From: Blastochloris viridis
Lineage (GTDB): Bacteria; Pseudomonadota; Alphaproteobacteria; UBA2136; UBA6156
Length of the DNA: 64,000 bases
Direction: 5' to 3'
Assembly: GCA_005768725.1 (NCBI GenBank)
Contig: VAFM01000002.1
Location: 276,486-340,485, forward strand
In this document: positions 856 through 35,020 of the stretch, in pieces
How positions within the stretch are numbered: the stretch's first letter is position 1
Layout: each line of letters opens with the position of its first letter
Made by a program: the position numbers and the translations under genes
Notes under the pieces: generated by a model
The model's database searches: none
The model's input: the letters and a program-made list of their open reading frames with translations, nothing else
Told to the model about the DNA's origin: nothing

Positions 856-1395
856 ATGAAACCATCTCTTCTCCTGATAGCAATCCTTTGCTGCACATCA
901 ATCTCTCTCCATGCCCAAGAGCGCACCGCCGGCGGCAACCTGCAGAACGAAGCATCATGGAATGCTCTGAAAGGGATTGCCGACAGTGCCAATAACAATG
1001 CGAAATCCGCCCACATCCGCCTGAACCAGGTGGAAGCCTGTGGCAAACTGGGTATGTTCTACGCACCCGGTGCAGCGGGCAGCGATGGTCAGGGCTGTAA
1101 GGCTCCCGCCATGGGCAACCAGGGTTCCCGCTGGAGCCGCGATTCGGGCTACGCATGGGCGGGCCCGCTGCTTTTCCAGTGGGGCCGCACCTGCTTGGGT
1201 TACAGTACGGAAGTACATGTCCCCCTTCCCGTCACCTACCCGAACGCGATCATGAACGTCGTGGGCCAATTGGATGAACAACACTTTGGCGCTACCCGCG
1301 CCAACCAGTATGTCCGTATTGTGAACAACGGCACTATTCTGGCCGGTAAAACCAATATCAATGGCTGTATGAACTGGCTTACAACCGGTTATTAA
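856..1395 (+). CDS. Secreted Cys-rich protein, paralog A of a 3-member family (shared N-terminal module QERTAGGNL..EASWNAL..NNNAKSAHIRLNQV.AC)
   Basis: ATG with AAAGGAAAGG RBS upstream; signal peptide ending ..HA|QE; paralogs at 27400-27924(-) and 33129-33656(+). Confidence 0.6.
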   Translation: MKPSLLLIAILCCTSISLHAQERTAGGNLQNEASWNALKGIADSANNNAKSAHIRLNQVEACGKLGMFYAPGAAGSDGQGCKAPAMGNQGSRWSRDSGYAWAGPLLFQWGRTCLGYSTEVHVPLPVTYPNAIMNVVGQLDEQHFGATRANQYVRIVNNGTILAGKTNINGCMNWLTTGY

Positions 1396-1512: not shown

Positions 1513-2055
1513 ATGAACACCATAACCGGCCTTTACACTACAGCAACGGGGCTCGCGCAGCTCCGCGAGGGCTTTGCCAAGGCCGATACCGACGGCAGCA
1601 AAGCGCTCTCGTTCGCCGAGTTCGAAGCCGCCGCAAAACTCAACCCCAACATCACCGCATCCTCTACGGTCGAAGCCACGTTCGCCAAGCTGGACGCCGA
1701 TGGCAACAAGCAGATCACCGCCAACGAGATTACCCAGGGCCTCAACCTGACAACGCAGGTCTACAGCGCCCTGCTGCAAGGGCAAGAGCTCCGCTCCGGC
1801 AACGCCTTCCTCACCCTGTTAGGCAGCGCCTCCAATGCGAGTTCGATGTTCGGCACCGACAGTTCTAGCAATTACTTCAATCTCACCTCCAGCCTGATGG
1901 GCGGCGGCAGTGCCTCCACCTATCTCACAACCCTGGCCAGCGGCGGTAATTCCAATACCACCCTGCTCGCCGCGATGTTCGATGGCTCGGGCGGCACCGC
2001 ATCGCGTCTGGAATCCCTTCTCAGCCAATACGTGACGACCGATACCGAAGCCTGA
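1513..2055 (+). CDS. EF-hand calcium-binding-like protein with Ser/Gly/Thr-rich C-terminus
   Basis: Two canonical EF-hand loops (DTDGSKALSFAEFE, DADGNKQITANEI); RBS aggattaggaag upstream. Confidence 0.5.
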   Translation: MNTITGLYTTATGLAQLREGFAKADTDGSKALSFAEFEAAAKLNPNITASSTVEATFAKLDADGNKQITANEITQGLNLTTQVYSALLQGQELRSGNAFLTLLGSASNASSMFGTDSSSNYFNLTSSLMGGGSASTYLTTLASGGNSNTTLLAAMFDGSGGTASRLESLLSQYVTTDTEA

Positions 2056-10439: not shown

Positions 10440-11378
10440 CTATTCCACCCCGGTAAAGCGTACTTCCCGCTCCATCACAATCCCTAACCGCTCCAGCACC
10501 TGCGCTTCCACTTTCTGGCTCAATGCCTCAAAATCGGCCGCCGTTCCAGGCGTCCCTTCCTTGGCTCCGGCATTCACAAAAAAGTTAGCGTGCTGCTCAC
10601 TCACCTGCGCACCACCTACGCGCATACCACGGCATCCGGCTTCATCTACAATCCGCCAGGCGTTCACGCGCTCACCGTCGCGCACCACGTTCTTGAACCA
10701 ACTGCCCGAGCTCGGCATATGCAGCGGCTGCGTACTGCTGCGCGCGCGGTTGATCTCCTGCATCTGTTTGCGAATCTCTTCCTTATCGCCGGGCACCAGC
10801 TCCCATTCACCGGCCTTGTACAGCCATCCGGCAGGCAGTGCCGTGCCACGGTAACGCGGTGCCAGAAAATCCGGCGTCACTTCGCGTTCTGCGCCGTCGG
10901 CATCCAGCACCCACACACGCTTCAGCTTATCAAACGTCTCAAACCCGTAGGCCCCCGCATTCATGCGCAGCGCCCCACCGATAGCTCCGGGAATCCCCCC
11001 AAAGAACGCAATCCCTTCCAGCCCAGCCTCACGCGCGGCACGGGCGGCAGTCCCATTCGCAGCGCCCGCTTCGGCATATAATAAGGTACCGTCGACACGC
11101 ACGGCATCCAGCCCTTTGGCCAGATTCACCACCACACCGGCAATGCCACCATCACGGATCACCATATTGCTACCCTTGCCCATCGGCGTCAGCGCCACGG
11201 CATGGGCATTGCACCAGCGCACTAAAGCCGCCATCTGGTCCCAGTCGGTAACCTCAGCCATCACCTCGGCCGGGCCACCGACCTTGATCGTGGTATAATC
11301 CGCCAGCGGCACATTGCGCGTATAGCTAATACCTTCGGGCATATCCTCAAACCAAACCGGAGCAGGCCATTCCTTCAT
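10440..11378 (-). CDS. murB: UDP-N-acetylenolpyruvoylglucosamine reductase
   Basis: FAD-binding MurB-like sequence; start at internal MKEW Met. Confidence 0.88.
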   Translation of the reverse strand: MKEWPAPVWFEDMPEGISYTRNVPLADYTTIKVGGPAEVMAEVTDWDQMAALVRWCNAHAVALTPMGKGSNMVIRDGGIAGVVVNLAKGLDAVRVDGTLLYAEAGAANGTAARAAREAGLEGIAFFGGIPGAIGGALRMNAGAYGFETFDKLKRVWVLDADGAEREVTPDFLAPRYRGTALPAGWLYKAGEWELVPGDKEEIRKQMQEINRARSSTQPLHMPSSGSWFKNVVRDGERVNAWRIVDEAGCRGMRVGGAQVSEQHANFFVNAGAKEGTPGTAADFEALSQKVEAQVLERLGIVMEREVRFTGVE

Positions 11379-20601: not shown

Positions 20602-22461
20602 TTAATCAACCACTTCACCCGTTGCATCAGGTCGTAATTTCACGCCCCCCGCACTACCGCGCTTGGTTCTAAAATCGCTCAACACATACGTCTGCCACGG
20701 GTCATTGTACTTGCGCTTGGTACGGTCCAGCAGCGCACGGTAGGCGGTTACTTCATCCATGTCCGGCTTTAGCGCGGCAAGTTGGGTCAGGTCACGGTAA
20801 AAGTCTCCCACCACCGGTGCCGCGCTCTTACCACCGGTCTCATAGCCCTTCTTCGGCTCGTCTAGCATCACCAGCGTAATATATTCCGGGTTCTTCATCG
20901 GCAACACACCCACGTAACTCACGCGGTTCTTGTCCTTGGCATAACCACGGCCAACAATCTTTTCCGCCGTCCCGGTCTTGCCGCCAATATCATAACCTAC
21001 CACCTGGCTGCTACGCCCACTGCCATTCAGCACCACGTCACGCATCAGCACATGGATCTGCTCCAGTGTGGCGTCATCGATCAACCGGCGCGGCTGCGTC
21101 GTGCTCACACCGCCCAGCAACACGCTGGGGTGCTTTACGTAGCCGTCGGCAAGTGTGGCCACGGCATTCACAAGGTGCACCGGCGTCACACTCATCCCGT
21201 GACCAAACGAAATGGTAAAGGTCTGAATGCGTCCCCAGTTGTTCGGGTAACGCACATTCCCCACTTCGGGGATACCCGTCTGGATCGGCTCAAGCATGCC
21301 GAGCTTGGTCATGAATTCCTTCTGCGCGGCAGGGCCGCTCATGTCAGCGATCTTCGCCGCCCCGATGTTGGACGAATAACGCAGCACTTCATTGGCGGTC
21401 AGAATCGCCTTCTTGGCGTGGAAGTCCTTAATCGTGTAACGCCCGATGGAGATCGGCGTCCGCGCATCGATCAGCGTATCCGGCGTGATCTTCTTCTCCA
21501 CCAAACCTTGCGCCAGCGTAAAGAGCTTGAAGGTGCTCCCCATTTCGTAGCTGCCCAGCGTTACGTGGTTGAACATCTCGGCGGGCGTGGCCTTGCCTAG
21601 GTGGTTCGGGTCGTAATCGGGCAGACTGACCAGCGCCACGATCTCACGGGTCGGCGCCTTCATCACCAGTGCCCACGCGGCTTTGCTCTCGCTCTTGTCC
21701 TTCATTTCGATCAGACGCCGACGCAGCATTTCCTGCAACCGCACATCAAGCCCGAGGTGAATATCCTCACCCGCCGCCAACTGCGTGTTAAAGCCGCGTT
21801 CCACACCGGCCAAGCCGGTATTGTCCACGTCCACCGCACCCAGCACGTGGCTGGCCAGGTTCTTGTGCGGATACACCCGCACGAACTCTTCCCGGAATTC
21901 CAAGCCCGGCAACCCGAGCGCATTCACTTTCTGCGCCTCATCCGGCGTCAGGCGGCGCTTGATCCAGATAAACCGGCGGCTCGGGTCTTCAAGCTGCGCT
22001 TTCAGGCGCGCCATGTCCAAGCCCGGCAGCGCCTGCGGCAGGCGGCGTATCACGTCCTGGGGGTCCAGAATACGCTTGGGGTCGGCGTACAGGCTGTACA
22101 CCTTCAACGTAGCCGCCAGCAGCACGTTATTGCGGTCGTAAATATTCCCGCGGCGCAGCGTCTCCTTGGGCATCTCCCGGATGCTCGGACGCGGCTCGGC
22201 CGGCGGCATAAGACCCACATAGGCCAATTTTGCCCCCACACCGGCAAACGCCAGCGTCAGCACACCCATCACAATCATCGCACGGAAGTGCGCGGCAACC
22301 CCGCTCTCCACGATCTCGGCCCGGGTGGGCATAAAGCCACGCGCCGCGTGGGTCTTCACCCGCCGCTGCTGTACGGTGCTACGCTTCGGGGTAAATACGG
22401 GCGTGTTGTCACGTCCGCGCCCGATGCGCGCACTTTCCCAAGGCTTCTTGAATTGGCTCAT
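20602..22461 (-). CDS. ftsI: Peptidoglycan D,D-transpeptidase FtsI (PBP3)
   Basis: STFK, SSN and KTG motifs; N-terminal TM; 619 aa. Confidence 0.9.
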   Translation of the reverse strand: MSQFKKPWESARIGRGRDNTPVFTPKRSTVQQRRVKTHAARGFMPTRAEIVESGVAAHFRAMIVMGVLTLAFAGVGAKLAYVGLMPPAEPRPSIREMPKETLRRGNIYDRNNVLLAATLKVYSLYADPKRILDPQDVIRRLPQALPGLDMARLKAQLEDPSRRFIWIKRRLTPDEAQKVNALGLPGLEFREEFVRVYPHKNLASHVLGAVDVDNTGLAGVERGFNTQLAAGEDIHLGLDVRLQEMLRRRLIEMKDKSESKAAWALVMKAPTREIVALVSLPDYDPNHLGKATPAEMFNHVTLGSYEMGSTFKLFTLAQGLVEKKITPDTLIDARTPISIGRYTIKDFHAKKAILTANEVLRYSSNIGAAKIADMSGPAAQKEFMTKLGMLEPIQTGIPEVGNVRYPNNWGRIQTFTISFGHGMSVTPVHLVNAVATLADGYVKHPSVLLGGVSTTQPRRLIDDATLEQIHVLMRDVVLNGSGRSSQVVGYDIGGKTGTAEKIVGRGYAKDKNRVSYVGVLPMKNPEYITLVMLDEPKKGYETGGKSAAPVVGDFYRDLTQLAALKPDMDEVTAYRALLDRTKRKYNDPWQTYVLSDFRTKRGSAGGVKLRPDATGEVVD

Positions 22462-22523
22462 TCGCCACCATAATGCTTAAAAACAAAGCCACCCACAAGG
22501 GTGGCCGCCACGTCTCCGCGCGT

Positions 22524-23009
22524 TTATTCGGCAGCGGCGGCAGGCACAAGGGTTTCCGAAACCTCCTCAACCGCCTCGCTCGGCAAAGCCGCTTCCGGCG
22601 GCACGGTGGTGGTGGATGACGTCCCTTCAGCCACCATCGCGGGCCCCGTCTCCTCCACCTCACTGTTACTGACAAACCCGGCAGCCAGTACCGCTGCCAC
22701 AGCGCTACCCGAAACCACGCGCGGTGCCGCCGGCACCGTGCCGCTCACCGGCTCCATCGGCGCAATAATATCCAGCGCAGTGGCAGGCACATACCCCATG
22801 GTCTGAACCACACGCTCCATGCGGCTGGGGCTGGCCAACAAGGCCCATTCCGCTTCCAGCACCCGCTTGGTCTCGCGCAGCTCGGCACGCTCGCGCACCA
22901 GTTGCATACGCTGGCGGTCCATGGTCTGGACGTCGGTCTTGATACGCATCATGCCGGCAAACGCCGCCACACTCAGCAATACCGCCAGCAACACCAGACT
23001 ATTTCTCAT
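22524..23009 (-). CDS. ftsL: Cell division protein FtsL-like (TM anchor + coiled coil, Ala/Glu/Val-rich tail)
   Basis: Position immediately upstream of ftsI; N-terminal TM then REAELRETKRVLEAEW coiled coil. Confidence 0.6.
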   Translation of the reverse strand: MRNSLVLLAVLLSVAAFAGMMRIKTDVQTMDRQRMQLVRERAELRETKRVLEAEWALLASPSRMERVVQTMGYVPATALDIIAPMEPVSGTVPAAPRVVSGSAVAAVLAAGFVSNSEVEETGPAMVAEGTSSTTTVPPEAALPSEAVEEVSETLVPAAAAE

Positions 23010-23035
23010 ACCCCCAACCTAACAGCGCCTCAGCT

Positions 23036-23072
23036 GCAAAACAAGACCGGCCCCTTCAGGCCGGTCTGTTTG
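23036..23072. terminator. Bidirectional terminator between ftsL start region and the 23092 gene
   Basis: aaaacaag-agaccggcccc-ttca-ggccggtct-gttt. Confidence 0.55.
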
Positions 23073-23091
23073 GCGGGCAGCCGTGTGACTT

Positions 23092-23727
23092 CTAGTGTCC
23101 GCTGCCCTGGGCCTCGGCACCTGCCGGAGGCGTTTCATCGGCCGGAGTCGCCGGTTGGATCTCAGCGGTCGGGGTCGCTGGCTTTTCATCAATGGCCGGT
23201 TCCTTTACAGGAGCCGTTTCTGCCGGAGCGGTTTCCGCAGGCAGAGCTTCCTCGGTGGCAGCCTCTTCCTTCACAACCACCTTCTTGGCAGCCTTCTTCA
23301 CAGCCGGTTTGGCAACAGGGGTCGGCACACGTTTGCCGTTCTCATCCCAACGGTCAGCAAACTTGGCTTCGCCTTTACCCACAACAAACAAGCCGCTGGT
23401 CGGGTCAAAGGTAAAGCGGTCATATCCCTTTTCACGGGCATATTCCTGCCAGCTCTTGTCAGCCGTGTCCGGGAACTGGGTGGTGGTGCCGTCTTCCAGC
23501 TTCACGGTCGCCATGTGGCCCGGGTCAACGGTCGGGGCGCTGCCAACAGCCGTGGTTTCCACGGTAGTGTAGGTGGTCGTGGTGGTGGTCGGCACGTCCG
23601 AGTACGGGTTGGCCGGTACTTCGTGGGTCACGGTCGTGGTGTTTTCTACCTGCTCAACCATCACTTGGGCGTTAGCTTGGGTAGCTACCAGAGCAGCGGC
23701 CGCAGCAACATACAACATCTTGTTCAT
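23092..23727 (-). CDS. Secreted protein with poly-Thr tract and Lys/Ala/Pro/Glu-rich (histone H1-like) C-terminus
   Basis: Signal peptide MNKMLYVAAAAALVATQANA; AGGAGAAAA RBS at internal Met. Confidence 0.55.
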   Translation of the reverse strand: MNKMLYVAAAAALVATQANAQVMVEQVENTTTVTHEVPANPYSDVPTTTTTTYTTVETTAVGSAPTVDPGHMATVKLEDGTTTQFPDTADKSWQEYAREKGYDRFTFDPTSGLFVVGKGEAKFADRWDENGKRVPTPVAKPAVKKAAKKVVVKEEAATEEALPAETAPAETAPVKEPAIDEKPATPTAEIQPATPADETPPAGAEAQGSGH

Positions 23728-23932
23728 TTTAGGTTTTTCTCCTGTGTTGGATACCTTCATCATAAAGGCTCATCGGCAGTATAATGCACAATCACGCGGT
23801 TTGTTCAGCGTTTGGGTACGCTGCGTGCGCTTTTTTCCCAAGGGGGTGTGCCCATGGGGTTTTCCAATCATCCCGGAACCTTTGCCACGCTGTCCCGTCT
23901 CTCTCTTGATTAAGAAAACGACCAAGAAAGGT

Positions 23933-24508
23933 ATGACCATGACAACACTATCCGAAGCCCGCATCCTTATCCTCGCCACCGACGGCTTTGAACAATCCGA
24001 ACTGGAAACCCCGCTGAACGAACTCCGCGCCGCAGGTGCCACAGTGCACGTCTGTGCACCCTCCCAAACCAAGGAAGAAGGCGTCATTCGCGGCTGGAAA
24101 GACGGCGACTGGGGTACCACTGTTCCGGTTGATGTGATTCTGGAATCCAGCACCGACTGGCCCTACCACGCTCTAGTGCTGCCGGGCGGTGTGATCAACC
24201 CAGACACCCTGCGCACCAACCCCAATGCCGTGAAGCTGGTGCAGGCATTCGTCAACGAAGGCAAACCGGTCGCCGCCATCTGCCACGGCCCATGGCTGCT
24301 GGCCGAAGCCGATGTGGTGAACGGCCGTAAGGTCACCTCCTACACCTCCATTAAAACCGACATGATCAATGCCGGTGCCGACTGGCAGGATGCCGAGGTG
24401 GTGACCGACAACGGACTCATTACCTCGCGTAAGCCGTCCGACCTTCCCGCCTTCGTCGCCAAGATCCTCGAGGAAGTGCAGGAAGGCCAGCACCGCCGCG
24501 CCGCATAG
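23933..24508 (+). CDS. DJ-1/PfpI family protein (class I glutamine amidotransferase-like)
   Basis: AICHGP nucleophile-elbow motif, 191 aa from MTMTT start with AAGAAAGG RBS. Confidence 0.8.
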   Translation: MTMTTLSEARILILATDGFEQSELETPLNELRAAGATVHVCAPSQTKEEGVIRGWKDGDWGTTVPVDVILESSTDWPYHALVLPGGVINPDTLRTNPNAVKLVQAFVNEGKPVAAICHGPWLLAEADVVNGRKVTSYTSIKTDMINAGADWQDAEVVTDNGLITSRKPSDLPAFVAKILEEVQEGQHRRAA

Positions 24509-24693
24509 CGCTACCATACAACCCATAAGCCTCTCGGAATGGGAGGCTTTTTAGTATCTTACCGATAAAAATCCTTGTCTCCCCATCTTGACGAAGCCCA
24601 ACGCTCATTGCATACAAAGCATGTCGCAAGACATATGTTTGAAGTATCCCTAAATCACGTTCACCTTTCAGCCATTCCAAAAGGAGAGGAACC

Positions 24694-25128
24694 ATGCTGA
24701 AGAAACTTCTCACCTGCGCCAGCGCGGCCCTGATCACCGCTGCCATGCTGTCCACCAGCGCCCATGCCGACCTCCGCCGCTCCGGCCAGGCCGCCTGGGA
24801 TGTTTACCAGGGTCGTCTCGGCCTGAAGATCGGCGGCAACGCCAGTATGATCTTCGGCAACGAAACCTACTGCTCACGCGGTCAGGTGCAGAATATGGTC
24901 TATGGCCACTACAACCAGAACGTCGAGTTCGTCGGCAACATGTCGTCCCTCATCGGCCGTATGAACGGCAGCTGGGGCGGCAGCGGAGACTCGGACGGTT
25001 ACGTTCTTGCAGACGTCTTCGACTGCGGCGTCTCGCTCGGCGGGCGTCTCAGCGGCGCCGTCTGCGTCTCGCTGGACATCATGCAGCCGATGGGCACCCG
25101 CTACTGCGCCTACGGCACGCAGGAGTAA
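24694..25128 (+). CDS. Secreted protein (144 aa), hypothetical
   Basis: Signal peptide ..STSAHA; AAAAGGAGAGG RBS. Confidence 0.5.
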   Translation: MLKKLLTCASAALITAAMLSTSAHADLRRSGQAAWDVYQGRLGLKIGGNASMIFGNETYCSRGQVQNMVYGHYNQNVEFVGNMSSLIGRMNGSWGGSGDSDGYVLADVFDCGVSLGGRLSGAVCVSLDIMQPMGTRYCAYGTQE

Positions 25129-25198
25129 CCCTGCACGCACATGCGGAACGCCCTCCCGGCGTTCCGCAACTCCTTTCATGGTTCAGGAGGAACCCCTC

Positions 25199-25915
25199 AT
25201 GAAAATGCGTCCTACCTTACTTCTGGCCGCCTGCATCGCGCTTACGGCTTCCACGGCCATGGCCCAGCAGGTACCCAAGAATATCTCCGGTGATATCCTC
25301 ACCGACGACATCAACATCCACAGCCGCAACAGCGCAGAGGTCTGCTGGTCCAACAGTGACAATCAGACCTGCCATACTCTAGTGGGTGCCGGTAACGACC
25401 GCAACTGCACCGATAGCACTCTGCTTCGCACCGCCGAAACCTTCATGAACCGGAAGTTCCGCTACTACAATACCGACCGGCTCATGGATGAAGACGGCAA
25501 TCTCGAGATTCAGGGCGTCGGCGGTCTCCGCTCGTTCCTGAAACGCGACCGCGATGGCGGCATCTTTGCCGCCCTGCTCCGGTGCACCAGAAATGGTGAA
25601 TTCACCGGCACCTACGCGCTGCTGATCGATCTGGAAGACACCATGACCAACGAAGGCACCTTCAAGCCGGAAGGACTGTTCCATGTCGCCATCGACACGG
25701 GCGACGACGACATGGAACAAGTCGAACACGCTCCCGCTACTGTCGAAGACGAACCTATCGTCACGGAAAAACCGGTCGTCGTCACGCAGGAAGAGCAACT
25801 TCCCGCCAAGCCTTCGGCCAAGGCCGGACTGGCGAAGCAGGTCGAATCCCTGTCGGAAGAAGATGCCGAGGCCATCGCCAAAGCCATTCAGGAGATCAGG
25901 GATAAAAAGCAATAA
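25199..25915 (+). CDS. Secreted protein, tandem paralog E (238 aa) with acidic C-terminal tail
   Basis: Signal peptide ..ASTAMA; AGGAGG RBS; paralogous core shared with 26064 gene (..YALLIDLED.. vs ..YALIIDKDE..). Confidence 0.55.
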   Translation: MKMRPTLLLAACIALTASTAMAQQVPKNISGDILTDDINIHSRNSAEVCWSNSDNQTCHTLVGAGNDRNCTDSTLLRTAETFMNRKFRYYNTDRLMDEDGNLEIQGVGGLRSFLKRDRDGGIFAALLRCTRNGEFTGTYALLIDLEDTMTNEGTFKPEGLFHVAIDTGDDDMEQVEHAPATVEDEPIVTEKPVVVTQEEQLPAKPSAKAGLAKQVESLSEEDAEAIAKAIQEIRDKKQ

Positions 25916-25928
25916 CCCTCTATATTGT

Positions 25929-25959
25929 AAAAAACGGCAGCCCAGTGGCTGCCGTTTTT
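25929..25959 (+). terminator. Rho-independent terminator (identical copy at 26628-26657)
   Basis: aaaaacggcagcc-cagt-ggctgccgttttt. Confidence 0.7.
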
Positions 25960-26063
25960 CTCTTTTCCATGGCATCGCTCGGCCCACCTTGACCACTCGT
26001 ATCACTCAATATATACAGCAATCACCACAACTTAGCCCTTTCCTCACGCCCGGAGCCTCTCTC

Positions 26064-26621
26064 ATGCGCGCATCTTTCCGTCTGTCTCTTTCCGTTCTGG
26101 CCATGGTCATGTGCCATGTCCCGCAACCCTCTGCCGCCGCCGAGCCCAAGATCGACATCATTTACGGCAACCTACTCAATTACAAAATAGATCTCCGCGA
26201 TCCGGCCATCACCTTGTGTTGGGAAGAGATCTTCAGCCCCGGCAAGCTCAAAGCATGCCGGACCGTTGTTCCTTCCGATACCTATGGCCAGGCCCTCACC
26301 TGCCCTCTGATGAATGTCGGGGATATGGCGGAAAGCTTCATGACGATCTGGCGCAATGTTCTCAAACTGAAGGGTGATTTCAGCCAGATACCCGAATGGC
26401 CTGCCATAACGGGCTTTGCGGCCCTGCCTCGCATTCTGGCGACCAATGGCGAAGGCACGCTGCATGCAAGCCTGATCCAATGCCAGGTGGACGGTCAGCT
26501 GACGGATATCTACGCCCTGATCATCGATAAGGACGAGGTCAACCTGTCGGACGCCAAGGCCGAAAAGGGACTGTATCCAGAAGCCGTCTTCAAGGTGACG
26601 CTGCAAAAGCCGTCCAAATAA
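26064..26621 (+). CDS. Secreted protein, tandem paralog F (185 aa)
   Basis: Signal peptide ..PSAAA; shares core with gene E; identical terminator downstream. Confidence 0.55.
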   Translation: MRASFRLSLSVLAMVMCHVPQPSAAAEPKIDIIYGNLLNYKIDLRDPAITLCWEEIFSPGKLKACRTVVPSDTYGQALTCPLMNVGDMAESFMTIWRNVLKLKGDFSQIPEWPAITGFAALPRILATNGEGTLHASLIQCQVDGQLTDIYALIIDKDEVNLSDAKAEKGLYPEAVFKVTLQKPSK

Positions 26622-26627
26622 CGTCGC

Positions 26628-26657
26628 AAAAACGGCAGCCCAGTGGCTGCCGTTTTT
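26628..26657 (+). terminator. Rho-independent terminator (identical to 25929-25959)
   Basis: aaaaacggcagcc-cagt-ggctgccgttttt. Confidence 0.7.
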
Positions 26658-26700
26658 GCGTTTCTTGCCAAAGGTACACAAATCCCCTAGGTTACGGCAC

Positions 26701-27345
26701 ATGATCACCCGCCCGACCCCGACCATCACCCTTGTCCATAACGATCTCCCCGCCGGCCTCACCTTCCCGAACGGCATGGTCGCGATCGATACCGAAACCA
26801 CCGGCCTCTCGCTGGTGACCGACCGCCTGTGCCTGGCCCAGGTCGGCGATGGCGAAGGCAACGTCTGGCTGGTCAAGTTCGATGGCTCCGACTACTCCGC
26901 ACCTAACCTGCGCAAAGTGCTGGAAGACCCGCGCCTCATTAAGCTCTTCCACTTCGCCCGCTTCGACCTCGCCATGCTGCAAAAATGGCTGGGCCTGCCG
27001 GAGATCCATCCCTCTTTCTGCACCAAAATCGCCAGCAAGCTCACCCAACCCGGCCCGGGCAAACATAACCTGCGCACCCTGTGCAAAGACTTTCTGGGTG
27101 TCGAGCTCGATAAGACCGAGCAGATGTCCAACTGGGCGGCAGAAGAACTGACCGAAAGCCAGATGAACTACGCCGCCTCGGACGTTCTCTACCTGCATGA
27201 GCTCTACCAGATCTTCAGCGACAAACTGACCGAAATGGGTCTCAACGTCGCCATGCACAACGCCCTCAACTTCCTCGCCACTCGCGTCGAGCTCGACCTC
27301 AAGGGCTACCCCGAGACCGATCTCTTCTCCCACACCGGCTGGTAA
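26701..27345 (+). CDS. RNase D-like 3'-5' exonuclease (DEDDy family), short single-domain form
   Basis: Exo I AIDTETTGL, Exo III YAASDVLYL motifs; 214 aa. Confidence 0.75.
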   Translation: MITRPTPTITLVHNDLPAGLTFPNGMVAIDTETTGLSLVTDRLCLAQVGDGEGNVWLVKFDGSDYSAPNLRKVLEDPRLIKLFHFARFDLAMLQKWLGLPEIHPSFCTKIASKLTQPGPGKHNLRTLCKDFLGVELDKTEQMSNWAAEELTESQMNYAASDVLYLHELYQIFSDKLTEMGLNVAMHNALNFLATRVELDLKGYPETDLFSHTGW

Positions 27346-27358
27346 TCCCGCCTGAATG

Positions 27359-27385
27359 AAAAGCCCCGCACACGCGGGGCTTTTT
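27359..27385. terminator. Bidirectional terminator
   Basis: agccccgc-acac-gcggggct then T5. Confidence 0.65.
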
Positions 27386-27399
27386 AGTATCGGCTTCAG

Positions 27400-27924
27400 C
27401 TACATGCCGCGCGTACACAAAAATTCCTGAGTATGACACTCATTCAAATAAACACCGCCACTTCCCGGATATTTACAGAAATTCGACATTTCGTTTTCAC
27501 TCATACGGTCGGTACCATACCCAATATGTAACACTTTCGCGTCGCCGCAACGCGGTACGCCATTCTGGCATCCGGTTGCATCCCCCCACGGGTTGCGTAT
27601 GGTCCAGTCAGTCCCAACACGGGGTCCCGACTCCGGCGTCAGACACTGCCCACCACCCGTAATCACAAAGCCGCGCATACAGCCGTTACCATCTGCGCCA
27701 GCCTGTCCAGTCGCATAAAACGCCCCCTTACGCGCACAGGCATCCACCTGATTAAGCCGTATATGCGCCGATTTCGCATTATTGTTGGCTTGGTCGGCAA
27801 TATTCTGCAAAGCCGACCAACTGGCCTCCATGTTCAAACTTCCTCCCGCCGTCCGCTCTTGGGCATAGCTGCCGCACACCAGGCTTAAGGCAACGACAAC
27901 AACCGACCAGACACGTACGTTCAT
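27400..27924 (-). CDS. Secreted Cys-rich protein, paralog B of the QERTAGG family (9 Cys in C-terminal half)
   Basis: Signal peptide ..GSYA|QE; N-terminal 60 aa about 65% identical to paralog A, C-terminus unrelated. Confidence 0.6.
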   Translation of the reverse strand: MNVRVWSVVVVALSLVCGSYAQERTAGGSLNMEASWSALQNIADQANNNAKSAHIRLNQVDACARKGAFYATGQAGADGNGCMRGFVITGGGQCLTPESGPRVGTDWTIRNPWGDATGCQNGVPRCGDAKVLHIGYGTDRMSENEMSNFCKYPGSGGVYLNECHTQEFLCTRGM

Positions 27925-28013
27925 GAAGGAATCTTTCTTTTGGTTCTGTAATATTATAACCCTGAAGAGCAAGCAAACCTGACGCCTTCCAAATTCTTAA
28001 AAAATCAGCCCGA

Positions 28014-29021
28014 TTGCCAAAATGCCCGATCAGCGGTATTTCAATACCCATGCAAAACCAAGCCCTCGCCGCTGCGCTGGAAACCCTCCGCGCTGAAACC
28101 GCCGCTCTTCAGAACCTCACCAAGGCTCTGGAGGCCGACCCCGCACTGCCCGCCGCACTCAGCCTGCTGCAGGCGGTAACCCTGAATGGCGGCGGACGGG
28201 TCATCGTCACCGGCGTAGGCAAATCCGGTCACATCGGCGGCAAGATCGCCGCTACCTTGGCCAGCACCGGTACCCCGGCCTTCTTTGTACACCCCACCGA
28301 AGCCCTGCACGGCGACCTCGGCATGATTACCAAGTCCGATGTCATCATCGCCCTTTCCCACAGCGGCGAAAGCAAAGAGCTGGCCGCGGTTGTCACCTAC
28401 GCCACACGCTTCTCCATCCCGCTTATCGCCGTCACCGGTAAACCCGCCAGCACGCTGGCCAAAGCCGCCAAGGTCACCCTCAATACCCGTGTCGAGAAAG
28501 AAGCCTGCCCGCTGAATCTCGCCCCCACCACCAGCACCACAGTGGCGCTGGCGCTGTGCGACGCACTGGCTGTCGCGCTGATGACCGCGCGCGGCTTCAG
28601 CAAAGAAGACTTTGCGGTCTTCCACCCCGGCGGCAAACTCGGCGCCCAGCTGCTGCGGGTGAAGGAGATCATGGTGGACGAGAACCTGCCGCTGCATTCC
28701 GAAAACGCCCCGATGGCCGACGTTCTGGTCACCCTCACCGCCAGCAACCTCGGCTGCGTCGGCCTCACCGATGCCAAGGGCAACCTCACCGGTATCTTTA
28801 CCGATGGCGACCTCAAGCGCCGCCTGACGCCAGACCTCCTCTCCCGCACGGTGGCCGACGTCATGACCCGCACACCCAAAACCATCACGCCAGACGCCCT
28901 CGCCACCGCCGCCGTGGCGCATATGGAACAAACCAACGTCACAACCCTTTGGGTTACAGACAAAAACAAACCCGTCGGCCTGCTGCGCATTCAGGAATGC
29001 CTGCACGCCAACGTCATCTAA
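28014..29021 (+). CDS. kdsD: Arabinose-5-phosphate isomerase (KdsD/KpsF family; SIS + tandem CBS)
   Basis: GRVIVTGVGKSGHIG SIS motif, C-terminal CBS pair; followed by lptC-lptA-lptB. Confidence 0.88.
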   Translation: MPKCPISGISIPMQNQALAAALETLRAETAALQNLTKALEADPALPAALSLLQAVTLNGGGRVIVTGVGKSGHIGGKIAATLASTGTPAFFVHPTEALHGDLGMITKSDVIIALSHSGESKELAAVVTYATRFSIPLIAVTGKPASTLAKAAKVTLNTRVEKEACPLNLAPTTSTTVALALCDALAVALMTARGFSKEDFAVFHPGGKLGAQLLRVKEIMVDENLPLHSENAPMADVLVTLTASNLGCVGLTDAKGNLTGIFTDGDLKRRLTPDLLSRTVADVMTRTPKTITPDALATAAVAHMEQTNVTTLWVTDKNKPVGLLRIQECLHANVI

Positions 29022-29046
29022 ACCTGTACTGGAAAGCCCGTCTCGC

Positions 29047-29697
29047 ATGCTTCAGCGTCGTCGCGTCATTATCCTCCTGCTGCTGGCCGCTGTGGGTATT
29101 CTGGGGGTTATTCTGTTCCTCAACGTGCGTCCCAGCACCATGTTCAGTCTGGCCGCACCTATTGCCAAACCGCTCACATCATCCTCCCTGCCGCAAGGTG
29201 TCTCCACCACGCTGGATGGCCCGCTCACCCAAGTCTCCGGCACCACATTGCTGGAAAAACCGCGCTATACCGGCCAGGACGCCCTGGGCCGCAACTGGAC
29301 CGTCCAGGCCGAAAACGCCCTGCAGGGCGGTACAGCCTCCAGCGGCACCTACATCCTCCAACAGGTTACCGCCGAATGGTCCGATCCCAAGCAACAGACA
29401 CCACTCACCATCCGCGCCGAAGAAGGCGACTACAGCCAGACCTCGTCCTCCATTCAGTTGACCGGCAACGTCCAGGCCACCGGCATGGGCCTCAACCTCA
29501 CCGCCCCGCAAATGAATGCCGACCTCGCCAGTCGCCGTATCACCGCCAGCGGCGGCAGCCATGTCACCGGCACGGTGGGCAAAGAAAAAGGCGGCTGGAA
29601 CATCGACCTCAAAGCACCCAATCTCTCCGCCGACCCTTCCAGCAGCATCCTGCTGTTCACCGGCGGCGTTCGTGCTAAACTGACCCCCATCAAATAA
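29047..29697 (+). CDS. lptC: LPS export protein LptC-like (N-terminal TM anchor, periplasmic beta-jellyroll)
   Basis: Position between kdsD and lptA; TM anchor LLLLAAVGILGVILFL. Confidence 0.6.
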   Translation: MLQRRRVIILLLLAAVGILGVILFLNVRPSTMFSLAAPIAKPLTSSSLPQGVSTTLDGPLTQVSGTTLLEKPRYTGQDALGRNWTVQAENALQGGTASSGTYILQQVTAEWSDPKQQTPLTIRAEEGDYSQTSSSIQLTGNVQATGMGLNLTAPQMNADLASRRITASGGSHVTGTVGKEKGGWNIDLKAPNLSADPSSSILLFTGGVRAKLTPIK

Positions 29698-29711
29698 TCA
29701 CAGGCATAGCC

Positions 29712-30203
29712 ATGAACACCCGTCTCTCCTCAAGCGTCCTTACTCTCGCCCTGGCCACCCTCACGCTGGCCCCGGCCTACGCCGCCACCCAGGGTCCTAT
29801 CGACATCACCGCCCAGAAGCTGGAAGTCAACCAGTCCTCCAGCAAGGCCGTCTTCAGCGGCAACGTCGTGGTCACGCAGCAGGGTCTCACCCTTACCGCC
29901 CCGACTGTCACCGCCGATTACACCAGCAAAGCGGGTAACAGCGGCATTCAAACCGTCACCGCCTCGGGCGGCGTGGTCATTACCCGCAACGGCACCGGCG
30001 GCGTAACCGAAAAAGCCACCGGCTCCACCGCGGTGTACAACCCCGATGCCGGCAACCTCACGCTCACCGGCGCGGTCACGCTGGTGCGCGGCCCAAGCGA
30101 ACTGTCCGGCGACAAACTGGTCTATAACCTCACCACCGGTAATGCCGTGGTGACCAACAGCGCTGGCCCGGTTAAAGCCCGCTTCGTGCCCGGCGGCAAG
30201 TAG
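29712..30203 (+). CDS. lptA: LPS transport periplasmic protein LptA (OstA-N domain)
   Basis: Signal peptide, OstA-like repeats, 163 aa, immediately upstream of lptB. Confidence 0.7.
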   Translation: MNTRLSSSVLTLALATLTLAPAYAATQGPIDITAQKLEVNQSSSKAVFSGNVVVTQQGLTLTAPTVTADYTSKAGNSGIQTVTASGGVVITRNGTGGVTEKATGSTAVYNPDAGNLTLTGAVTLVRGPSELSGDKLVYNLTTGNAVVTNSAGPVKARFVPGGK

Positions 30204-30237
30204 CCATCGCGCTTCATGTGTGCTACAAACGCCGCCA

Positions 30238-30993
30238 ATGACCACTGCCTCTACCCCTCCCGCCAAAGGCCTGTATGTCGAAGGCCTGCAGAAACGCGTT
30301 GGCGCCCGCCAGATTCTGCGCAATGTCTCTCTCTCCGTCCAGCGCGGCCAGGTCGTGGCCCTGCTGGGGCCCAACGGCGCCGGTAAAACCAGCAGCTTCC
30401 AGGCCGTTATCGGCCTGACCCATGTCGATAGCGGCGTGATCACGCTGGACGGCGCCGATCTTACCCACCTGCCCATGTACCGCCGTGCCCGTCTGGGCCT
30501 CGGCTATTTGCCACAGGAGAGCAGCATTTTCCGCGGCCTGTCGGTAGAAAAGAACCTGCTCGCGGTGCTCGAAATGGTCTGCCGCACCCACGCCGAGCAA
30601 ACCACGCGCCTTGAAGAACTGCTCAACGAATTCGGCCTGACCAAGGTCCGCCACAGCCCGGCCCCTGCCCTTTCGGGTGGTGAACGCCGCCGTGTCGAGA
30701 TCGCACGCGCACTGGCCGCCAATCCGCAATTCATGATGCTCGACGAACCCTTTGCCGGGGTCGACCCTCTCGCCATCCGCGACGTGAAGAACTTGGTGCT
30801 GCACCTCAAAACGCGCGGCATGGGCGTCCTGATTACCGACCACAACGTCCGGGATACGTTAAGCCTTGTCGACCACGCCTACATCATGGCCGAAGGTCAG
30901 GTCCTAGCCTCCGGTACGCCGGCGCAGATCGTCGCCAACCCGGACGTTCGCCGCGTCTATCTGGGCGACGACTTCGAACTCGCCAAATCCTAA
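30238..30993 (+). CDS. lptB: LPS export ABC transporter ATP-binding protein LptB
   Basis: Walker A GPNGAGKTS, signature LSGGERRRVEIARAL, Walker B MLDEPFAGVD; start at MTTAS (track start 30220 also possible). Confidence 0.88.
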   Translation: MTTASTPPAKGLYVEGLQKRVGARQILRNVSLSVQRGQVVALLGPNGAGKTSSFQAVIGLTHVDSGVITLDGADLTHLPMYRRARLGLGYLPQESSIFRGLSVEKNLLAVLEMVCRTHAEQTTRLEELLNEFGLTKVRHSPAPALSGGERRRVEIARALAANPQFMMLDEPFAGVDPLAIRDVKNLVLHLKTRGMGVLITDHNVRDTLSLVDHAYIMAEGQVLASGTPAQIVANPDVRRVYLGDDFELAKS

Positions 30994-31157
30994 CCGATTG
31001 TCCGACAATCCGTCGCGCCAAAAGGCGCTTATCCGCCATTGTCTTTACGGAAAACGGAAACGACCGCCCTACCCCCTTGCCTTCTTATTCTGAAAGGTTC
31101 ATGTAAGAAACGTCTCCCGGAGACATCACATCATTTACATATGCGGAGGGGAAACTC

Positions 31158-31400
31158 ATGATGCGTTTAGTTGAAACGCCGCTCATCGGCGCCATTATCT
31201 GCCTGATTCCCGTGTACCTTGCGTTGACCTACCTTCACATACCCGCTGAAACATTCAAACCGTTCCTGATGCTCTGCTTCCTGGGATACATGTTCCTGGC
31301 TGCGGCCTGCGCCACCATTACCGCCTTCCACGGCACCGCTATATTTGTAGTCGCGGCACTTATGCTTCTGGGTCTGGCACATGTAACGCCAATCCTCTGA
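31158..31400 (+). CDS. Small membrane protein (80 aa, 2-3 TM), hypothetical
   Basis: Hydrophobic ORF with GGAGGGGAAA RBS; shares a bidirectional terminator with accD. Confidence 0.4.
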   Translation: MMRLVETPLIGAIICLIPVYLALTYLHIPAETFKPFLMLCFLGYMFLAAACATITAFHGTAIFVVAALMLLGLAHVTPIL

Positions 31401-31418
31401 ATACCTTACTTCGTCCGT

Positions 31419-31451
31419 AAAAAACGCCGCCCTTGTCCAGAGCGGCGTTTT
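31419..31451. terminator. Bidirectional terminator (serves accD on minus strand)
   Basis: A6-cgccgc..gcggcg-T4. Confidence 0.55.
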
Positions 31452-31469
31452 GTTATGTCGCGTAAACTC

Positions 31470-32333
31470 TTAAGCCTTGCGACCGGCCGTCATCATGCCG
31501 AGCAGCTTGGCCAACGTGGCACGCTGCTCGCTGCGCGGCGTCACCATATCCACCATCCCGTGCTCCAGCAGATATTCGGCACGCTGGAAGCCTTCCGGCA
31601 ACGTCTGGCGGATGGTCTGCTCGATCACCCGCGCCCCGGCAAACCCGATCAGAGCCCCGGGCTCCGCCATATGCACGTCACCGGTCATCGCGAAACTCGC
31701 ACTCACACCACCGGTGGTCGGGTCGGTCAGTAACACAAGATACGGCAAACCAGCCTCTTTCAGCATCGCAATTGCGGCCGTGCTGCGTGCCATCTGCATC
31801 AGGCTCAGGGTGCTTTCCTGCATGCGGGCACCACCACTCGCGGTGATAACCATCATCGGGATCTTCTTTTCCAGCGCATACTGGGCGGTCGCCACCAAAG
31901 CTTCCCCCACACCACGGCTCATAGAGCCTGCCATGAAGCCGAAGTCCAGCGCGCACACCGCTACCGGCTGGCTCTCAATATGGCCATGCAGCGCACGGAA
32001 AGCATCGCTGTGACCACTGGCGGCGCGGGCGTCTTTCAGACGCGCCTTGTAGGCTTTCTTGTCCTTGAAATTTAGGGGGTCGTCGGCTGGCACCGGCACG
32101 GCAATCTCCACCGGAGCCTTGCCTTCGTCCTGATCCAGCAGATACTCCAGACGCGCATCGATATCCCAGCGCAAATGGTGGTTACAATGCGTGCAGCAGA
32201 ACAGGTTCTGCGGCAGTTCGGCGGCGTAAATCAGTTGGCCACAGCCGGGGCACTTTTCCCACACATCGGCGGCAACCTCGCGCTTTTTGGTGGTTTTGAT
32301 GCTCGGACGGATCAGATCGGTAAGGAACGACAT
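31470..32333 (-). CDS. accD: Acetyl-CoA carboxylase carboxyltransferase subunit beta
   Basis: N-terminal Zn ribbon CPGCGQ..CTHCNHH, carboxyltransferase domain; start at MSFLTD Met. Confidence 0.9.
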   Translation of the reverse strand: MSFLTDLIRPSIKTTKKREVAADVWEKCPGCGQLIYAAELPQNLFCCTHCNHHLRWDIDARLEYLLDQDEGKAPVEIAVPVPADDPLNFKDKKAYKARLKDARAASGHSDAFRALHGHIESQPVAVCALDFGFMAGSMSRGVGEALVATAQYALEKKIPMMVITASGGARMQESTLSLMQMARSTAAIAMLKEAGLPYLVLLTDPTTGGVSASFAMTGDVHMAEPGALIGFAGARVIEQTIRQTLPEGFQRAEYLLEHGMVDMVTPRSEQRATLAKLLGMMTAGRKA

Positions 32334-32431
32334 GCCCCCTCTATACCGCAAAATCCCCTTGCACGCACGTTTTTTAGAGTATACAGACCACCCATCCACG
32401 AGGAACATACCGCACATACGGAGCAAGACGC

Positions 32432-32992
32432 ATGTCATCCGATGCCTACTACATTTCCAAAGCCTTTCACGTCATTACCGAACGTATAGCCCGCAAAGGC
32501 GCAACCGAAAAGCTGCCCAACTGGCACCGCGCCAAACCGATCCTTCTCGGCCAGACATGCCTCCCGCCTGATCGCGAGGATCTGGCCCAGGTGCTCTATA
32601 ACCTGTGGGAGAAAAGCCTGACCTACTACCAGCAGGCCGACCTGTTTCTGCCACGGCCGGATATCCTGCACCCAGGCTCGCACGACAATCCGGACATGCT
32701 CTGCATAACCGAGCATCAGGCCACAACCTACAAGCTGCGTATCCTGACCGAAAAACAACATCAACGGCCCGGCACATGGCAGGCGTTCGACCTCTACGCC
32801 AGAACCCCGCCAAAACAGCGGCCCAGGCTCAAACAGGGTTATGGCGAAGTTCCGGTCCGGCTTCTGCAAACCATGCCGAACGTGCATATGGCTCGTGCCA
32901 TCACGCTGGCGGTGGTCATCACCGCCAACCGTCACTTGCACGGCATCTACCCCCGCACGCTGATCGCTCTGGAGCGCGAAGCCGTCTGCTAA
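32432..32992 (+). CDS. Hypothetical protein (186 aa)
   Basis: Plus-strand frame chosen over the mirror minus ORF because of upstream GGAG and the strong plus-strand terminator at 33004-33043. Confidence 0.4.
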   Translation: MSSDAYYISKAFHVITERIARKGATEKLPNWHRAKPILLGQTCLPPDREDLAQVLYNLWEKSLTYYQQADLFLPRPDILHPGSHDNPDMLCITEHQATTYKLRILTEKQHQRPGTWQAFDLYARTPPKQRPRLKQGYGEVPVRLLQTMPNVHMARAITLAVVITANRHLHGIYPRTLIALEREAVC

Positions 32993-33003
32993 AACCACCT
33001 ATA

Positions 33004-33043
33004 GGAGCCTCTCTGACATCCTGCAGAGAGGCTCTCTTTTTTT
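33004..33043 (+). terminator. Rho-independent terminator
   Basis: gagcctctctg-acatcct-gcagagaggctc then T7. Confidence 0.7.
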
Positions 33044-33128
33044 ACATATTTACAACATGTAACACCCGTTATTTGGCCTATCTGGCACGTGTCAAATGCA
33101 CGCCTCCTGAATGATGCTATAAGAGGGT

Positions 33129-33656
33129 ATGAAAAACATTGTCATCACTCTCGCTTTCGTCCTGTCATTGTTCATAAGTCCGGTTAATTACGCCCAAGAG
33201 CGCACCGCAAGTGGCAATCTCATGCAGGAAGCCAACTGGAATTCACTGAAAAGCCTGGTCGATGCCGCCAGTAAAAAAGTCGACATGATGCAGGCCCAGA
33301 TCGACAAGATTGCAGAATGTGGTACCGCAGGTATGGTGTATGCTCCCGGCGAGACCAGCACCAGTATCAATGGCTGTAAAAAAACCAATGCAACACTCGC
33401 ACCATTTGTCGTGACCGCTGCCGGGAGTAACGAGCAAGCTATCGCGCAGTGCCCCTCCACTGCCGTCCGTATCGGCTGTGCCGGTGCCCGGGATGTCAAC
33501 CTCAGCGATGGCTGCCGCGAAGAATCCTGCGGCGTGATGGGAGCCATTCCTTACGGTGCCAACGGCTGCCTGATGCGCAATACTAACGACGGCGGCCGCA
33601 AAGCCAACGAACGCGCTCTTACTCCTGTTGCCTACGCTTTCTGCACCCCCAAATAA
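33129..33656 (+). CDS. Secreted Cys-rich protein, paralog C of the QERTAGG family
   Basis: Signal peptide ..VNYA|QE; conserved N-terminal module, divergent Cys-rich C-terminus; AAGAGGG RBS. Confidence 0.6.
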   Translation: MKNIVITLAFVLSLFISPVNYAQERTASGNLMQEANWNSLKSLVDAASKKVDMMQAQIDKIAECGTAGMVYAPGETSTSINGCKKTNATLAPFVVTAAGSNEQAIAQCPSTAVRIGCAGARDVNLSDGCREESCGVMGAIPYGANGCLMRNTNDGGRKANERALTPVAYAFCTPK

Positions 33657-33673
33657 GCCGAGCAAAATCACCT

Positions 33674-33701
33674 AAAACCCCTGTTTAAGCAGGGGTTTTT
33701 G
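33674..33701 (+). terminator. Rho-independent terminator
   Basis: aaaacccctg-tttaag-caggggttttt. Confidence 0.7.
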
Positions 33702-33763
33702 ATTGTCGATAGCGAATGAAAGATATACATACACATATCTACATCCGTACACGGAGTATTATC

Positions 33764-34312: not shown

Positions 34313-34314
34313 AA

Positions 34315-34343
34315 GAGCCTCCCCGCAAAGGAGGCTCTTTTTT
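34315..34343 (+). terminator. Rho-independent terminator
   Basis: agagcctcc-ccgcaaa-ggaggctct then T6. Confidence 0.7.
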
Positions 34344-34409
34344 CGCAGATACCTTGTCTTAACGCCCCCTTTTCGCTAGATTCCACCCCGTAAAAGGAAA
34401 GGAATCCCT

Positions 34410-34934: not shown

Positions 34935-34951
34935 CAGGCACATACCTGCAC

Positions 34952-34975
34952 AAAAGGGCCCATAGGGCCCTTTTT
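34952..34975 (+). terminator. Rho-independent terminator after ppa
   Basis: aaaagggccc-ata-gggccctttt. Confidence 0.7.
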
Positions 34976-35020
34976 GCTATCCCTAAATCATTGTCCAGTC
35001 TATCAGGTTTGCTAAAGATA

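Follow-up and report, generated by a model that had tools for sequence, protein, structure and literature searches.

What are the three small secreted proteins, alike at their N-termini and unrelated at their C-termini, that are encoded in a 64,000-nucleotide stretch of the Blastochloris viridis assembly GCA_005768725.1 (contig VAFM01000002.1, positions 276,486 to 340,485 of the forward strand; the whole of this stretch is called the window below)? A sequence-only reading of the window had noticed the three genes and, from their layout, had compared them with polymorphic effectors and bacteriocin-like peptides. The analysis reported here leads to another answer. The N-terminal module defines a real, undescribed alphaproteobacterial family, of which the three proteins, here named A, B and C, are paralogues; in an estimate that we would put at about even, they are exported, disulfide-bonded and probably trimeric coiled-coil mini-fibres carrying interchangeable ligand-binding heads. 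One helical stalk combined with many heads of the binding type makes them look like surface-recognition proteins, not toxins.

The Three Genes and Their Common Module

The three open reading frames (ORFs) lie where the sequence-only reading had placed them, the second on the minus strand; the ATG starts used here are the shorter, internal ones, at 856 (A), 27924 (B) and 33129 (C). Their lengths are given in amino acids (aa).

856-1395, plus strand: gene A (DI628_07000), 179 aa
856-915, 913-1098 and 1099-1392: signal peptide, module (AQERTA...GC) and tail of A, the tail being a Gp53-like_C tail-fibre-tip domain
27400-27924, minus strand: gene B (DI628_07140), 174 aa
27924-27862, 27864-27679 and 27678-27403: signal peptide, module and tail (6 Cys) of B
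33129-33656, plus strand: gene C (DI628_07180), 175 aa
33129-33194, 33192-33377 and 33378-33653: signal peptide, module and tail of C, the tail being a predicted Cys-rich beta-sandwich of resistin-like fold

In each of the three, a signal peptide directly precedes the mature start, MKPSLLLIAILCCTSISLHA|QERTAGG in A, MNVRVWSVVVVALSLVCGSYA|QERTAGG in B and MKNIVITLAFVLSLFISPVNYA|QERTASG in C, in agreement with the cleavage pattern A|QERTA(G/S)G noticed beforehand. No lipobox is present: there is no L-x-x-C before the cleavage site, and the mature N-terminus is Gln, after A|Q. The proteins have 24 invariant columns in common, nearly all at residues 20-81. They can be aligned over a block of 62 residues (AQERTA...GC) and become unalignable beyond the second conserved Cys; both the shared N-terminal module and the unrelated C-termini of the sequence-only reading are therefore borne out. 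Their likeness goes well past what chance would give: a hidden Markov model (HMM) of the module recognizes the three ORFs with E values from 1e-25 to 1e-37, and the back-translated module motif finds exactly three matches in the window (A, B and C) compared with none in 100 shuffles; no fourth copy was revealed in the 64-kb window by the module profile. The mature proteins, of about 154-159 aa, contain an even number of Cys residues (4 in A, 8 in B and 8 in C), of which 2, 6 and 6, respectively, are located in the tails, so that the description of the tails as Cys-rich holds for B and C and fails for A.

The Family Defined by the Module

With the module profile as query, HMMER was run exhaustively over 1.84 billion representative proteins and retrieved 278 proteins at E<=1e-3, of which 151 at E<=1e-10, all of them being representatives at 50% identity; a word-indexed search with A alone yielded seven relatives, and the exhaustive profile search was needed for the rest. 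The members listed are 88-378 aa long, and in nearly all of them the signal peptide is followed at once by the module, which begins at residue ~17-25; a second module copy is found in 13 of 185 members. In 93% of the same 185 members the number of Cys residues in the tail is even, which fits disulfide bonding outside the cytoplasm. Where a source is named, the members come from metagenome-assembled genomes (MAGs) of uncultured Alphaproteobacteria and from two Agrobacterium records (A. tumefaciens GCA_013317995.1 and Agrobacterium sp. T29 CP040641), with several family copies per genome.

The sequence-only reading had been unable to assign the module to a named family, and the HMM search with the module alone matched no housekeeping family; the similarity survives proper alignment. 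No model of the module exists in Pfam, NCBIfam or PHROG (best PHROG E value over 48 queries 0.011, not significant), no relative was found among PDB sequences, and an NCBIfam scan returned nothing meaningful. Literature searches found no published account of the module or of bacterial resistin-like proteins, nor anything relevant on Agrobacterium sp. T29. The UniRef label 'DUF3617' carried by C was not reproduced by Pfam.

At the DNA level, a strict module motif has no match in 2.9 million IMG/VR viral contigs and occurs at 20 loci in JGI metagenomes. Only seven of these belong to the family; in the remaining 13 the motif had been hit by chance, within a mannosidase-like ORF or a membrane ORF. 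The peptide AQERTASG...W..L is also found by chance in a widespread, near-identical 224-aa ORF (MLKLGYETRIEGGG...) present in several metagenomes (loci L010, L012, L016, L020, L021, L023 and L025); this ORF is unrelated to the family, which makes QERTA alone unfit as a family signature.

Predicted Structure of the Module

AlphaFold2 models of B and C, two independent models, assign the same structure to the module and support the helical character ascribed to it earlier. Residues 1-9 are predicted to be unstructured and residues 10-45 to form one continuous helix of 36 residues, with predicted local distance difference test (pLDDT) values mostly >90, followed at residues ~48-64 by a beta-hairpin bracketed by the invariant Cys43 and Cys62. 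Q2 and E3 do not vary in any of 113 gap-free modules, and C43 and C62 are found in 100%; the other conserved positions are R4 (93%), A6 (97%), G8 (88%), W16 and L19 (99%), Y50 (96%), P52 (98%), and D58 and G61 (95%).

A lone amphipathic helix of 36 residues implies self-association. Its hydrophobic residues, at positions 16/19/23/26/30/33/37/40, describe a clean a/d heptad with a core of Ala, Val and Ile, beta-branched or Ala residues occupying both a and d (at the d positions, V33 in 43% and I/V40 in 62% of the modules); by the Harbury rules, such a core composition disfavours dimers. From the heptad, the coiled coil is probably parallel and three-stranded.

As for the unstructured N-terminus, the QERTA codons vary freely at synonymous sites in 30 true family genes, and the modules of A and B differ at synonymous positions; the conservation is thus due to selection on the peptide. 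The free synonymous variation rules out a nucleotide-level constraint on the QERTA codons, and the differences between A and B rule out recent gene conversion between the paralogues.

The Variable Tails

Clustering on the last 70 residues separates 180 tails into at least 81 clusters, the largest of which has 10 members. The tail of A scores 28.1 bits against Pfam Gp53-like_C (PF21882), the curated cut-off being 24.9; the same domain is above the Pfam cut-off in two relatives (31.9 bits for P0003) and has no match in B and C. The tail of A also matches phrog_4209, 'tail fiber protein' (E 2e-4), and, as a weak sequence match, PDB entry 4mtm, 'putative tail fiber protein' (E 0.05), which we take to be gp53 of Acinetobacter phage AP22; residues 105-178 align to this entry over SGY..G..L(I/F)QWG...(F/L)P..(F/Y)PNA. 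A further match of A, to phrog_5181, probably rests on the tail, because the module alone matches no PHROG. A tblastn search with A of 50,697 phage genomes gave no match.

Other heads can be recognized in the relatives. An H_lectin domain is found in 6 of the 150 members scanned, and the tails of P0006, P0177 and P0142 are 40-51% identical to residues 531-647 of a Peptidase_S74 fibre protein of 1145 aa, which is encoded beside family genes at locus L001; a resemblance of this last domain to a phage tail collar, suspected by eye, was not confirmed by Pfam. The longer members contain inserted N/T/S-rich coiled-coil segments and extra small Cys loops, and match coiled-coil families, including the trimeric Alanine_zipper and TolA_bind_tri. 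Among the 25 most frequent Pfam families listed for the 150 members, and in the scans of A, B and C, there is no toxin or enzyme family; those listed are lectin, tail-fibre and coiled-coil families. A BFVD search returned only weak, mostly unnamed matches.

The tail of C is modelled as a Cys-rich beta-sandwich whose closest structures, by two methods, are resistin, RELM-beta and the PCSK9 C-terminal domain; the R2 pyocin fibre is also among the structures listed. Resistin itself is built from an N-terminal coiled-coil helix and a disulfide-rich head; its coiled coil has three strands, forming a trimer or, by way of an N-terminal Cys, a hexamer. At the sequence level, Pfam Resistin (PF06954) reached E 0.63 for one of seven C-type tails, hhalign of resistin (the sequence having been checked against 1rfx) with a C-type tail gave a probability of 7.8% over 19 columns around a CPxGT...C motif, and a profile of the C tail had no match among PDB sequences. 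Sequence support being absent, the resistin resemblance of the modelled tail is best taken as a lead at the level of the fold. To our knowledge, in solved structures the Gp53-like_C, H-lectin, S74-fibre and resistin-type heads all sit on trimeric stalks.

Evolution of the Family

The syntenic region of a related pond MAG (L005) allows a comparison of the window genes with their surroundings: its RsmH is 89% identical to that of the window, and the housekeeping genes share 79-88% DNA identity. Gene C is found at the same site, with 73.6% identity. Gene B is absent, the rnd stop and the kdsD start lying there ~55 bp apart (L005 3106-3160 versus window 27353-28050), so that B, together with a promoter-like site and a hairpin, makes up a presence/absence difference of ~650 bp; its orthologues are P0007 and P0114. 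For kdsD in the window, an ATG start at 28050 is more likely than the TTG at 28014. The linkage of A with phaC is kept at locus L034, where the orthologue of A is 60% identical.

Nei-Gojobori estimates for three orthologue pairs give omega values of 0.08-0.21 in module and tail alike, which are rough since synonymous divergence (dS) is saturated. They point to purifying selection on the orthologues, whose tails are conserved as much as the modules; the diversifying evolution of the tails raised by the effector comparison is not what these pairs display. With tails as conserved as modules and omega this low, the diversity of the family is best traced to the swapping of heads and the turnover of paralogues by gain and loss, and not to diversification through point mutation.

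Genomic Neighbourhoods

The family genes occur either singly among housekeeping genes (L003, L005, L006, L008, L032 and L034; in L032 close to mlaEFD) or in tandem arrays of two to four (L001, L018, L019, L030, L031 and L033). Of the four arrays whose flanking sequence is long enough, three have a large phage-fibre-like gene immediately upstream on the same strand, coding for a secreted Peptidase_S74 fibre in L001 and L030, the two Agrobacterium records, and for a GP38-domain protein in L031. The S74 fibre of L001 contains a C1q-like stretch scoring just under the cut-off (22.7 bits, cut-off 23.7), and that of L030 has a signal peptide. The fibre gene and the two or three family genes that follow it form operon-like blocks:

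L001, 1902-7056: S74 fibre gene and family genes
L030, 7235-11310: S74 fibre gene and family genes
L031, 7359-10639: GP38-domain gene and family genes

Genes for an AraC-type regulator and a methyl-accepting chemotaxis protein (MCP) chemoreceptor flank the blocks in both Agrobacterium records.

Immunity-like small genes and secretion systems, which the sequence-only reading had named as possible companions of the module genes, are missing from the loci examined. No small immunity-like gene recurs downstream: A is followed by an EF-hand gene, B by none, being convergent with rnd, and C by a PD-(D/E)XK ORF that is absent in L005; at the other loci the downstream neighbours are housekeeping genes or further family members. 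Likewise, no genes of type V, VI or VII secretion (T5/T6/T7), of contact-dependent inhibition (CDI) or of ABC or bacteriocin export were found at these loci, the Sec signal peptide being the only export feature, and no phage genes lie near the window genes.

A Possible Mechanism and Its Alternatives

How might such proteins work? Signal peptidase I would cut after the conserved Ala, exposing the invariant Q-E-R-T-A-x-G N-terminus; the heptad helix of ~36 residues would assemble into a parallel, probably three-stranded coiled coil, clamped by the beta-hairpin that the invariant Cys43-Cys62 pair closes. Onto this constant stalk or anchor would be grafted globular heads drawn from the repertoire of trimeric receptor-binding proteins, namely a tail-fibre tip in A, a Cys-rich domain in B and a putative resistin-like sandwich in C, with H-type lectins and the S74-fibre domain in the relatives. 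The task of the assembled protein would be the multivalent binding of varied surface ligands (glycans and other cell-envelope molecules) outside the cytoplasm, that is, adhesion or recognition, while the conserved N-terminus may be a common element of attachment or assembly; an attractive sub-hypothesis has QERTA as the peptide by which the proteins dock into a shared socket, which may be the S74 or GP38 fibre encoded next to them. The repertoire would diversify as heads are swapped and paralogues gained or lost, and not through point mutation.

Several observations weigh against the mini-fibre reading as a whole. Pfam names a head in only ~10% of the scanned members, which makes 'binding heads' an extrapolation from the recognizable minority, and the tail of B is modelled with a pLDDT below 50, compared with >90 for the module helix. 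The R-h-x-x-h-E trimerisation motif, present in A, is found in only 20 of the 113 modules and is hence not a family feature; we infer the trimeric state of the family from the heptad analysis, as we do the final location of the proteins (at the surface or secreted, versus in the periplasm), the binding of ligands and the role of QERTA from the features described above. In the window, A, B and C each stand alone and have no fibre gene in their vicinity. Furthermore, nothing points to passage through the outer membrane, neither a lipobox nor a beta-barrel nor a linked secretion system, so that the proteins could stay periplasmic.

Another reading keeps the family in the periplasm, where its members would be envelope proteins serving, like Lpp or CpoB, as coiled-coil spacers or binders, with heads that would bind the cell's own peptidoglycan or other envelope components. 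It draws on the Sec signal as the sole targeting feature, on the matches of some members to Alanine_zipper (Lpp) and TolA_bind_tri, and on the position of the genes among envelope genes (dcw and kdsD-lptCAB in the window, mlaEFD in L032); at least 81 head types and presence or absence between close relatives are, however, unexpected for a housekeeping role, the recognizable heads are related to phage receptor-binding tips and lectins, the lipobox is lacking and only a narrow set of lineages has the family, all of which renders it rather improbable. We hold as a little less doubtful, yet still unlikely, a more specific version of the mini-fibre reading, in which the small proteins, instead of acting as adhesins on their own, dock through QERTA and the stalk onto a larger secreted fibre of S74 or GP38 type as its interchangeable distal tips or accessory adhesins; phage T2 offers an analogue in gp38, which caps gp37. 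The arrays lying immediately 3' of an S74 or GP38-domain gene on the same strand in L001, L030 and L031, the head type common to the S74 fibre and the family, and an unstructured N-terminus that is invariant, and conserved at the protein level only, all speak for such docking, but no fibre gene is adjacent in the window or in L003, L005, L006, L008, L032, L033 and L034.

The comparison with polymorphic toxins or bacteriocin-like peptides, in which the module would deliver and Cys-rich tails would kill competitors, stands as far as the layout is concerned: a constant N-terminus precedes a variable C-terminus in 278 representatives, with the many tail types noted above, tandem arrays occur, and the proteins are small, secreted and disulfide-rich. 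The killing could include membrane permeabilisation of the kind reported for RELM-beta on bacterial membranes (PMC13647132), since the modelled head of C resembles resistin and RELM-beta. As to function, the comparison is not supported. The frequent Pfam families include no toxin or enzyme, the loci examined include neither a recurrent immunity-like downstream gene nor linked T5/T6/T7 or bacteriocin export genes, diversifying selection is not seen, the orthologous tails appearing to be under purifying selection, the recognizable heads are lectin or tail-fibre domains, and A has been kept beside phaC across orthologues only 60% identical; a toxic role is therefore quite improbable. That the genes are decayed fragments of prophage tail fibres, without cellular function, can be regarded as effectively excluded: the tail of A is indeed a tail-fibre-tip domain, and A matches phrog_5181 and phrog_4209, but phage genes are missing nearby, the ORFs are intact, have signal peptides and appear to be under purifying selection, the module matches no PHROG, and neither the IMG/VR contigs nor the tblastn search of phage genomes yielded a hit.

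Returning to the mini-fibres, phages, pyocins and Bdellovibrio all select their targets with fibres in which a constant anchor bears a variable tip; if free-living or plant-associated Alphaproteobacteria have a compact, Sec-exported version of these, with at least 81 head types, the principle would reach beyond phages and predators. Some 280 clusters of 'hypothetical proteins' would also gain a name and a model, and the family would amount to a natural collection of small binding domains, stabilised by disulfides and mounted on a minimal oligomerising stalk, that engineering might draw on; the presence of arrays in Agrobacterium records makes the hypothesis testable in a genetically tractable genus. 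The boldest form of the idea, to which we assign a low probability, is that of a cellular, non-phage plug-in kit, with dozens of heads on a short trimeric stalk, QERTA docking into a common socket of fibre or envelope, and a bacterial head of resistin/PCSK9 type. In that case, by exchanging its small tip proteins a cell could direct a single fibre at many ligands, and the vertebrate resistin fold would gain a prokaryotic relative; the resistin-like fold, if confirmed, would bear on the origin of the Cys-rich domain of resistin and PCSK9.

Surroundings of the Genes in the Window

Each of the three genes is flanked by its own hairpins or promoter-like sites and, on that account, looks like an independent unit among housekeeping genes. 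A lies after phaC and ahead of an EF-hand gene, with a hairpin past its stop; B, between an rnd-like exonuclease gene and kdsD, is preceded by a promoter-like site and shares a hairpin with rnd; C is bordered by accD and the PD-(D/E)XK ORF, with hairpins on both sides. The elements concerned are the following:

1415-1434: G+C-rich hairpin, terminator-like on both strands, 20 nt past the stop of A
27363-27380: hairpin gccccgc-acac-gcggggc, with T5 after it on the plus strand, in the gap separating the rnd-like gene from the 3' end of B; read directly
27993-28020, minus strand: sigma-70-like promoter match 5' of B, 9/12 consensus positions, a consensus match only
33004-33035, plus strand: terminator-like hairpin upstream of C
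33674-33699, strand not assigned: hairpin directly past the stop of C

The hairpin shared by rnd and B was not listed by the consensus scan; the one at 33004-33035, judged from its terminator-like sequence, would isolate C from upstream transcription. The EF-hand gene directly 3' of A (1513-2055, plus strand) has a counterpart in L032, where another EF-hand ORF (10493-10867, with faint Pfam matches) lies ~1.8 kb from a family gene; this may be a coincidence.

B and C are both located, as the sequence-only reading had reported, in the segment that splits the dcw cluster, which amounts to ~12-13 kb (22462-35461) between ftsI (20602-22461) and rsmH (35462-36457) and had been described as an insertion of 12.4 kb. 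Its contents are mostly housekeeping genes (DJ-1/PfpI, the rnd-like exonuclease, kdsD, lptC/lptA/lptB and accD) and it is syntenic in L005, so that it has to be seen as an old rearrangement and not as a recent or mobile insertion.

The ORF downstream of C (33716-34312, plus strand) weakly resembles PD-(D/E)XK nucleases (E 2.4e-4, a little short of the Pfam cut-off); it falls in the kilobase of lowest GC content in the window (0.505), has no DNA counterpart at the L005 site and may be a small variable cassette beside C. Two other parts of the window, 24507-26625 and 34943-35466, have no DNA match in the otherwise syntenic L005; the first contains the unannotated ORFs 24694-25128, 25007-25915 and 25683-26621, and the second an ORF of 131 aa (35021-35416) between rsmH and the next conserved gene. 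Almost all 1-kb bins have a negative GC skew, and the cumulative value falls steadily to -9.4, which places the window within one replichore, without origin or terminus. The species name under which the MAG with this 626-kb contig was deposited, 'Blastochloris viridis' DI628, is unreliable, and the idea of a predatory (Micavibrio-like) organism was dropped, the close relatives of RsmH being 'Alphaproteobacteria bacterium' MAGs only.

Comparison with Known Systems

The closest parallel is provided by the mosaic adhesive trimer (MAT) fibres of Bdellovibrio, in which a signal peptide is followed by an invariant N-domain, believed to keep the fibre attached to the cell, and by variable tips, and which occur as many paralogues per genome, some ending in S74, with tip swapping having been proposed (Caulton et al. 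2024, PMC10769870). The module family shares with them the signal peptide, the constant N-terminal element, the variable phage-like tips and the many paralogues, as well as a link with S74, which ends some MATs and is found in the fibres encoded beside the arrays described here. MATs are proteins of ~500-1500 aa, with a beta-rich N-domain of ~130 aa and long, intertwined trimeric shafts of beta-helix or prism type (PMC10769870); by contrast, the module family has mature lengths of ~110-230 aa, an N-terminal element of 62 aa consisting of helix and hairpin, and no beta-helix shaft in the AlphaFold2 models. There is no sequence relationship, and the lineages differ, being Alphaproteobacteria on one side and Bdellovibrionota on the other. 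Lacking the 130-aa beta-rich N-domain and the beta-helix shaft, the family is not a MAT.

Among single heads, the tail of A passes the gathering score of the phage Gp53-like_C tip (PF21882); in phages this domain ends a long virion fibre, whereas in A it is carried by a short secreted stalk encoded in a chromosomal, non-prophage context. The putative resistin-like head of C differs from resistin, RELM and the PCSK9 C-terminal domain in having no significant sequence similarity to them and 6 Cys residues in other spacing, against 10-11 in resistin; moreover, it is only one head class of the module family, and resistins are vertebrate proteins.

With H-type lectins, C1q/TNF-like heads and trimeric autotransporter stalks, the family would share a trimeric stalk under a globular ligand-binding head; it differs from them in having neither a collagen stalk nor an autotransporter beta-barrel anchor, and no H_lectin domain in A, B or C. 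Indeed, no YadA-type beta-barrel anchor, as found in trimeric autotransporter adhesins, was matched by Pfam, and the proteins end in globular heads. Unlike Lpp-type lipoproteins, they have no lipobox Cys at +1.

A constant anchor with variable binding tips is thus an already known kind of system, the module itself being unannotated; judged by analogy, the proposed mini-fibres resemble MATs and phage receptor-binding proteins in their logic, without being members of either group.

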